Source of the DNA: Escherichia coli
GTDB taxonomy: Bacteria > Pseudomonadota > Gammaproteobacteria > Enterobacterales > Enterobacteriaceae
Strand: one strand, 5' to 3'
NCBI RefSeq assembly: GCF_965641715.1
Contig: NZ_OZ282453.1
Length of the DNA stretch: 64,000 nt
The stretch's first letter is position 1; each line of letters begins with the position of its first letter. Below the pieces are notes generated by a model. The model was not told the DNA's origin. It did not search any database and saw only the letters and a list, made by a program, of their open reading frames with translations. Positions 61,905 to 62,310 of the stretch are shown here, in pieces. The position numbers were made by a program, and so were the translations under genes.

Positions 61905-62310
61905 ATTTGGACACCATTGCCGGATGCGGCGTAAACGCCTTATCCGGCCTACACGTGCGTCCCCGTAGGTCGGATAAGATGCGCCAGCATCGCATCCGAC
62001 ATTTTGGGTACAGTAGCTGGATGCGACATGAACGCATTATGTGACCAACACATGCGCTCCCCGTAGGTCGGATAAGATGCGCCAGCATCGCATCCGACAT
62101 TTTGGGCACAGTAGCTGGATGCGATATGAACGCATTATGTGACCAACACATGCCTCCCCGTAGGTAGGGTAAGATGCGCCAGCATCGCATCCGACATTTT
62201 GGGTACAGTAGGCGGATGCGACATGAACGCATTATGTGACCAACACATGCGTCCCCGTAGGTCGGATAAGACGCGCCAGCGTCGCATCCGACATTTTAGG
62301 CACAGTAGCC
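61905..62310. repeat. REP/BIME cluster: one REP followed by four tandem copies of a 97-98 bp unit
   Basis: Unit ccccgtaggtcggataagatgcgccagcatcgcatccgacattttgggtacagtagctggatgcgacatgaacgcattatgtgaccaacacatgcg starting at 61961, 62059, 62156, 62253; preceded by gccggatgcggcgtaaacgccttatccggcctac. Confidence 0.85.

Follow-up and report, generated by a model that had tools for sequence, protein, structure and literature searches.

Results

The hypF-norW spacer is filled by a tandem REP array

We analyzed a 64,000-nucleotide stretch of Escherichia coli DNA (contig NZ_OZ282453.1 of assembly GCF_965641715.1), referred to here as the window. The genes hypF and norW are convergent in this window. The hypF stop codon is at 61894, norW ends at 62314, and the 419-bp spacer between them is filled by a repeat array. 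The whole array is extragenic, because it lies between the two stop codons. A first-pass annotation had proposed the convergent arrangement, and the open reading frames (ORFs), their Pfam domains, and the RefSeq annotation of near-identical loci all agree with it. The flanking genes are as follows.

59642-61894, + strand: hypF (carbamoyltransferase HypF), left flank, with stop codon TAA at 61892-61894; assigned from the ORF, Pfam, and RefSeq.
62314-63447, - strand: norW (NADH:flavorubredoxin reductase), right flank; assigned from the ORF, Pfam, and the RefSeq annotation of matching loci.

The hypF ORF matches the Pfam families HypF_C_2, zf-HYPF, Sua5, and acylphosphatase, and RefSeq has a 2,253-nt hypF with the same final base in a 99%-identical locus. 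The start at 59642 follows that RefSeq gene length; the longest ORF begins at 59570. The norW ORF matches Pyr_redox_2 and the rubredoxin-binding domain Rbx_binding. We take the two genes to be parts of the hydN-hypF and norVW operons, and both operons to be sigma-54 dependent. Two ORFs that run across the array (61771-62232 on the - strand and 62139-62438 on the + strand) were rejected as spurious, as they have no Pfam match and no RefSeq CDS. For K-12, the RefSeq annotation table has no repeat_region feature in the hypF-norW spacer.

Tandem Repeats Finder, the check proposed in the first-pass annotation, found one array at 61922-62309, with a period of 97, 4.0 copies, 90% matches, no indels, and a score of 627. 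No other tandem repeat in the 64-kb window comes close to it in strength, and pairs of units are 84.5 to 94.9% identical. The REP-like motif GTAGGTCGGATAAGATGCGCCAGCATCGCATCCGAC has four + strand matches, at 61965, 62063, 62160, and 62257, with 0, 0, 2, and 2 mismatches, respectively; 100 shuffles gave 0 matches. Read along the + strand, the array is a y REP, a 12-nt linker, a Z REP, and a 17- to 18-nt linker, followed by three repeats of Y', linker, Z, and linker, and then by a unique 21-nt tail. Its elements are listed below, all on the + strand.

61919-61952: intact y REP, the first element of copy 1, in iREP orientation with a CTAC 3' end; GTAG and the hairpin are on the - strand.
61953-61964: head-to-head linker, S-like, 12 nt, ACGTGCGTCCCC, from the sequence and the unit alignment.
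61965-62000: Z REP copy 1 (GTAG and an imperfect palindrome, z2-like), then AUUUUGGG; exact pattern match.
62001-62018, repeated at 62099-62116 and 62196-62213: tail-to-tail linker ATTTTGGGTACAGTAGCT, which aligns with the linker inside the naRNA4/REP325 unit (cmscan, RF02564).
62019-62051: Y' copy 1, a decayed y REP with 8 of 33 positions substituted relative to the leading y, CTAC changed to CAAC, and the stem lost.
About 62050-62062, 62148-62159, and 62245-62256: equivalent head-to-head linkers of copies 2 to 4, from the unit alignment.
62063-62098: Z REP copy 2; exact match.
62117-62149: Y' copy 2; pattern match, with one substitution relative to the other Y' copies.
62160-62195: Z REP copy 3, beginning GTAGGTAGGGTAAG, weakened by two lower-stem substitutions.
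62214-62246: Y' copy 3; pattern match.
62257-62292: Z REP copy 4, with the GACGC...GCGTC upper stem of the ancestral or K-12 form; its sequence matches the one Z of K-12 MG1655 exactly.
62293-62313: unique tail ATTTTAGGCACAGTAGCCCAC, which joins the array to the norW stop codon and is present once in every allele of one to five units that we read.

All four Z copies begin with GTAG on the + strand, and the leading y ends with CTAC where Y' has CAAC. Head-to-head linkers are 12 to 13 nt and tail-to-tail linkers 17 to 18 nt long, and neither contains a long L motif. The array had been described as one REP followed by four copies of a palindromic 97- to 98-bp unit. The four copies stand, as does the period, and each unit contains a REP hairpin. 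However, the leading y belongs to copy 1 and is not an extra element, and whole units are not palindromic, as Y' has no significant hairpin.

Other repeats occur elsewhere in the window. Single z2-like REPs, GTAGGCCTGATAAGACGTG...GCGTCGCATCAGGC, lie at 3432-3470 and 9936-9972, and a REP pair at about 54566-54645 consists of a short-loop unit and a y REP with a 16-nt linker between them. The Y' motif and the GTCGGAT variant stem are absent from these REPs. A tandem repeat at 20139-20297 (period 61, 2.6 copies) has a unit containing GAGTTCCCCGCGCCAGCGGGGATAAACCG. We take its resemblance to the E. coli type I-E CRISPR repeat with spacers of ~32 nt to mean that it is probably a short CRISPR array. 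There is also a weak 24-bp tandem repeat at 29565-29629 (2.7 copies, 70% matches, score 67).

The Z hairpins and the leading y fold stably, but Y' does not

An inverted-repeat finder reported no inverted pairs in the spacer, because REP stems are short and interrupted. We therefore used ViennaRNA folding in its place. The y hairpin at 61919-61948 has a predicted energy of -21.3 kcal/mol (z = -5.0). Z copies 1 and 2 each reach -19.9 kcal/mol (z = -4.6), copy 3 reaches -13.3 kcal/mol (z = -2.3), and copy 4 reaches -21.3 kcal/mol (z = -5.3). The intact y and Z share the REP palindrome, with 7 bp, a 2x2 internal mismatch, 4 to 5 bp, and a tetraloop. Y' does not form it; at -9.2 kcal/mol (z = -0.6), it folds no better than shuffled sequences on the + strand, and z is +0.1 on the - strand. 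On either strand, the spacer as a whole is predicted to fold much more stably than shuffled sequences (z = -6.8 and -5.5). Its hairpins, stable on both strands, begin 24 nt past the hypF stop codon and 21 nt past the norW stop codon.

A consensus scan found neither a promoter-like site nor a canonical intrinsic terminator, defined as a GC-rich hairpin followed directly by a U-run, inside the spacer. On the hypF-sense strand, each Z hairpin is followed by AUUUUGGG, which reads only A-UUUU-GGG, and its four U fall under the scan's rule. On the norW-sense strand, the corresponding sequence is CCUACGGGG.

Among 13 distinct Z-type sequences, 96.8% of stem cells were paired and three pairs had changed on both sides, in a sample that is small and related, so that one event may count several times. 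One upper-stem pair has three states over units and strains: C-G (the K-12 form), a C·A mismatch, and T-A (window units 1 to 3; 61980/61989 and 62175/62184). Both partners of this pair distinguish the window from the common four-unit haplotype, with T instead of C at 61980 and A instead of G at 61989. The C·A intermediate is kept in unit 3 of other four-unit alleles (ECNB21-M121 and EC11) and in unit 4 of the five-unit VCSW8 allele. Judged from these sequences, the three states appear to mark a visible compensatory path that was spread between units by conversion, because the unit beside the 61980/61989 change already has T/A.

The window carries a rare four-unit allele of a variable locus

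We surveyed 5,426 complete E. coli genomes. The window carries a rare four-unit form of a locus that has zero to five units in other strains. The first-pass annotation had anticipated such strain variation, and the survey bears it out. The distribution is as follows.

REP-less or otherwise divergent spacer: about 728 genomes (13%).
One unit (K-12 included): about 2,741 genomes (51%).
Two units: about 1,870 genomes (34%).
Three units: about 32 genomes (0.6%), estimated from the surplus of matching places.
Four units: 53 to 54 genomes (1%).
Five units: one genome (VCSW8).

These figures are approximate and rest on three counts: at least 80% of a 1.5-kb query is covered in 4,697 genomes, 5,425 match it at all, and 1,956 carry Y'. 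The last count comes from a 62-nt probe on Y' and its linkers, a sequence that can exist only in alleles with at least two units. The probe matched 1,956 of the 5,426 genomes, always on the chromosome, at one to four places per genome and 2,099 places in total. A 100% match was found in 56 genomes, with three places in 54 (four units), four in VCSW8, and one in the remaining genome. A 511-nt query over the array gave single-piece, gap-free matches of the same length in 53 genomes, from many hosts and countries, at 98.2 to 99.6% identity. The following alleles were read directly.

DG341-1: 77-bp spacer, no units (REP-less).
K-12 MG1655: 127-bp spacer, one unit.
ERL06-2497: 127-bp spacer, one unit.
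Nissle 1917: 223-bp spacer, two units.
01_3327: 225-bp spacer, two units.
FDAARGOS_943: 326-bp spacer, three units.
ECNB21-M121, EC11, ST866, and 2EC1: 419-bp spacer each, four units.
VCSW8: 517-bp spacer, five units.

B2-type strains (Nissle, ATCC 25922, and SE15) have a diverged two-unit form that is 85 to 88% identical. The closest of the 5,426 genomes is 99.1% identical to the window over 1.5 kb (61400-62900) and 99.6% identical over the array, and none is identical. Relative to the commonest four-unit haplotype, the hypF and norW flanks differ by about 2.5% and the array by 1.2%. Therefore, the four-unit allele sits on several flanking haplotypes.

The REP-less allele has a spacer of a different kind. 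In NZ_OZ392436.1 (740-900, equivalent to window 61864-62316), the hypF-norW spacer is a very different 77-bp sequence without a BIME. This type makes up about 13%, as judged from coverage, which is under 80% in 728 of 5,425 genomes, and from 4 of 30 evenly spaced rows with a span of roughly 1,147 bp. The last ~30 nt of hypF are replaced in it, giving a different C terminus. Only half a y REP, GGCGGATGTGGCGTAA, is left, and a GC-rich hairpin, CCCTCGCCC-TTT-GGGCGAGGG, takes the place of the array.

A scan for the Y' motif in one genome per GTDB species gave a single hit, Escherichia sp. E1V33 (NZ_RHJI01000004.1, 2012-2307), which has a three-unit array with a period of 98 at its hypF-norW junction. 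Therefore, the Y' module is either older than E. coli in the strict sense or has crossed lineages. The E1V33 array closely resembles the three-unit array of FDAARGOS_943, and both have Y' in its GTATGTGACATGAA variant. It may be that FDAARGOS_943 is a member of the E1V33 lineage or has recombined with it.

The array is BIME-2-like

The array is an ordinary E. coli REP/BIME array, BIME-2-like, and a known kind of element. BIME-2 combines z2 and y, inversely oriented and joined by a short linker S; it occurs in multiple tandem copies, which are well conserved at a given locus but differ in number from strain to strain (PMC3333891). In the hypF-norW spacer, y and Z alternate in inverse orientation, the leading y being canonical and the internal y copies decayed. 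The linkers are short and lack an L motif, and the number of tandem copies varies by strain, with 4.0 here and one to five units in other genomes. REPs of this kind are dispersed; with megablast, a median of 30 places per complete E. coli genome matched the query. PMC3333891 also cites Espeli and Boccard (1997) for BIME-2 being bound and cleaved by DNA gyrase.

naRNA4 derives from REP325, a 12-hairpin BIME between yjdM and yjdN. REP325 has 12 palindromic units that alternate Z2 and Y, and each naRNA is one Z2 plus one Y (bioRxiv 10.64898/2026.03.23.713779). The Rfam naRNA4 model (RF02564, 77 nt) gave five full-model hits in the spacer. Four of them overlap the four Z copies, and three of these also span Y', with Z, linker, and Y' aligned over the whole length of the 77-nt consensus. 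Across 33 positions, the leading y has the same sequence as the y half of that consensus. Z matches the Z2 half in the upper stem and loop; its lower stem is a compensated variant, GTCGGAT/ATCCGAC against GCCTGAT/ATCAGGC, with two compensated pairs. Z also has a G where Y and Z classically differ. The z2-like assignment rests on RF02564 and on the published statement that naRNAs are Z2 plus Y. With inverted REPs alternating with short linkers in tandem, and homology to the Z2 plus Y unit of REP325/naRNA4, the BIME-like reading of the first-pass annotation holds. The variant Z stem and the decayed internal y are such that a strict curator might file the array as an "atypical BIME."

Only the internal segment is multiplied

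All alleles that we read have one leading y, one terminal Z, and the tail, and only the internal Y'-linker-Z segment is multiplied. The VCSW8 allele is the four-unit allele with one further copy of unit 2. The main route of change, we suggest, would be slippage during replication, or unequal exchange between sister strands, at the near-identical stretches of Z and linker (~60 nt). Gene conversion may also act between units.

Recombination by TnpA(REP)/RAYT at the GTAG-footed Z REPs could be a further contributor. For TnpA(REP)/RAYT to act, a REP must have a GTAG foot, and cleavage needs a C|T site (PMC3333891). The Z copies qualify, as does the leading y, in which GGCC|TACA fits the published iREP-II cleavage consensus, but Y' (GACC|AACA) does not. 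RAYT-mediated amplification is possible, and at the level of sequence it looks the same as slippage.

Discussion

A proposed shared 3'-end hairpin barrier

We consider it very probable that the array is a BIME-2-like four-unit allele of a variable-number repeat that occupies the hypF-norW spacer throughout Escherichia. It would change by slippage or unequal exchange and would act as a shared 3'-end hairpin barrier. In the RNA, the hairpins would block 3'-to-5' exonucleases and partly halt read-through from both sides. The convergent hypF and norW transcripts would thereby be stabilized and kept from running into each other. We infer such a role, as a shared 3'-end barrier and stabilizer for the hydN-hypF and norVW transcripts, because stable hairpins are present on both strands and because of the literature on REP325 and on REPs between convergent genes. 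In the cited literature, the hairpins of REPs are a barrier to 3'-to-5' exonucleases and, assisted by Rho, partially terminate transcription. REP325 is a partial Rho-dependent terminator and mRNA stabilizer; the presence of REPs between convergent genes is correlated with higher expression of the two genes, and many of these REPs are found in bidirectional terminators; and what a REP does depends strongly on its context and is not always stabilizing (all bioRxiv 10.64898/2026.03.23.713779).

The position of the hairpins bears on a further effect. Liang, Rudd and Deutscher reportedly described in 2015 that REPs within about 15 nt of stop codons lead to ribosome stalling. Such stalling would not apply here, because the hairpins begin 24 and 21 nt from the stops. 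Added units would probably contribute little, and differences in copy number are likely close to neutral. About 13% of strains lack the element, and the others have one to five units without an obvious ecological pattern. The absence of a REP at this site in about 13% of E. coli genomes also makes the element dispensable.

The strongest rival goes further and holds that the array, above all its extra units, is functionless: selfish or neutral repeat DNA that drifts in copy number with a negligible effect on hypF and norVW. We take this possibility seriously, although we lean somewhat against it. Healthy isolates from many hosts have 0, 1, 2, 3, 4, or 5 units, the internal y copies decayed without restoration, one Z copy in the window is weakened, and the published effects of REPs are weak and context dependent, all of which would fit drift. 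Against it, the Z hairpin has been kept through compensatory changes, though gene conversion in a palindromic repeat could do so without selection, and the correlation between convergent-gene REPs and higher expression of both genes is genome-wide.

It is far less likely that the array encodes small RNAs of the naRNA type, which would be processed into two-hairpin units that bind HU and organize the nucleoid as proposed for REP325/naRNA4. The full 77-nt naRNA4 model does align, with E-values of 1.9e-8 to 2e-4. However, all five hits are below threshold, the best with 52.0 bits against a gathering score of 59.5 and the four over the Z copies with 33.7 to 43.3 bits. In three of these four, the y half is Y', whose hairpin is lost; the two alignments of Z plus Y' shown have a well-paired Z half and at least eight non-canonical pairs in the y half. 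We therefore rejected membership in naRNA4. Moreover, the spacer has no promoter-like site, and REP325 and naRNA4 do not measurably compact the chromosome (bioRxiv 10.64898/2026.03.23.713779).

Two other readings can be set aside almost entirely. The first-pass annotation had raised the concern that the four copies are an assembly artefact, a tandem repeat mis-expanded or mis-collapsed; although repeats of ~100 bp can be mis-assembled from short reads, and no genome has an array 100% identical to that of the window (best, 99.6%), we hold an artefact to be extremely unlikely, because copy number varies among genomes, five-unit and three-unit alleles included, and the gap-free 419-bp four-unit spacer recurs at equal length in 53 independent complete genomes, with the diagnostic SNPs between units in consistent order across genomes. 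Nor do we give any real credence to a BIME-1/RIP-type element with IHF binding as its chief role, a function that the annotation had listed and that the y REP, also part of BIME-1, might recall: BIME-1 has one y-L-z1 module, whose long linker carries an IHF site (PMC3333891), whereas this element is multi-copy with linkers of 12 and 17 to 18 nt, and the IHF consensus WATCAANNNNTTR is absent from 61895-62313 (the 64-kb window has only two, at 20.6 and 27.5 kb).

What the array adds

The array type and its copy-number variation between strains are already known and have been in the literature since the 1990s; PMC3333891, citing Bachellier et al. (1997), presents copy-number polymorphism of BIMEs at fixed loci as established. 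The array has little importance beyond annotation. One feature alone is mildly unusual, namely the long-dead y REP in the amplified module, which shows that decay of one REP does not prevent a BIME unit from being amplified.

One idea that builds on this feature seems to us improbable, yet worth stating. A module of one living and one dead REP, kept from E. coli phylogroups to cryptic Escherichia, would mean that a GTAG-footed Z, or homology by itself, is enough for amplification and that no REP doublet is needed. The array would be a strand-asymmetric, copy-number-tunable 3'-end element, with the Z hairpin plus U4 toward hypF and the hairpin alone toward norW, and it would set the mutual read-through of the hydN-hypF and norVW anaerobic operons.

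The locus offers a natural allelic series of 0, 1, 2, 3, 4, and 5 units between two convergent, well-studied operons. With this series, one could ask whether termination, mRNA stability, or transcriptional interference is tuned by the number of REPs. Short-read assemblies can miscount the hypF-norW repeat, which is a possible VNTR marker; a literature search on this locus as a VNTR/MLVA marker returned nothing relevant.

Comparison with known systems

The closest class is BIME-2 (Bachellier/Gilson; Ton-Hoang et al. 2012, PMC3333891). Both have alternating inverted y and z2-like REPs, short linkers, tandem copies that are well conserved at the locus and vary in number between strains, and no IHF site. 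Unlike in BIME-2, the internal y copies of the hypF-norW array are degenerate and have no hairpin, and its Z has a compensated lower stem without the TGCC|TGAT RAYT type-I site.

REP325/naRNA4 (RF02564) is similar in its 77- to 79-nt unit of Z, linker, and y, which aligns end to end, and in being a tandem array in a 3' UTR context. However, REP325 lies between tandem genes and the hypF-norW array between convergent genes. REP325 has 12 intact hairpins, whereas five of the eight positions fold well here, four of them strongly. Termination and stabilization were shown experimentally for REP325, and a role of the hypF-norW array would follow by analogy.

The single-unit hypF-norW pair of K-12 MG1655 has an identical leading y, terminal Z, and tail, and equal flanks. 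The window allele is the K-12 MG1655 allele plus three internal Z-linker-Y' segments; the spacer is 127 bp without Y' in K-12 MG1655 and 419 bp in the window. Finally, the REPINs or RAYT-associated doublets of Pseudomonas (Bertels and Rainey 2011, PMC3116915) are likewise inverted REP pairs, perhaps mobilized by a RAYT transposase. REPINs disperse as doublets to new sites, whereas the hypF-norW doublet has been amplified head to tail in place, with one partner dead.
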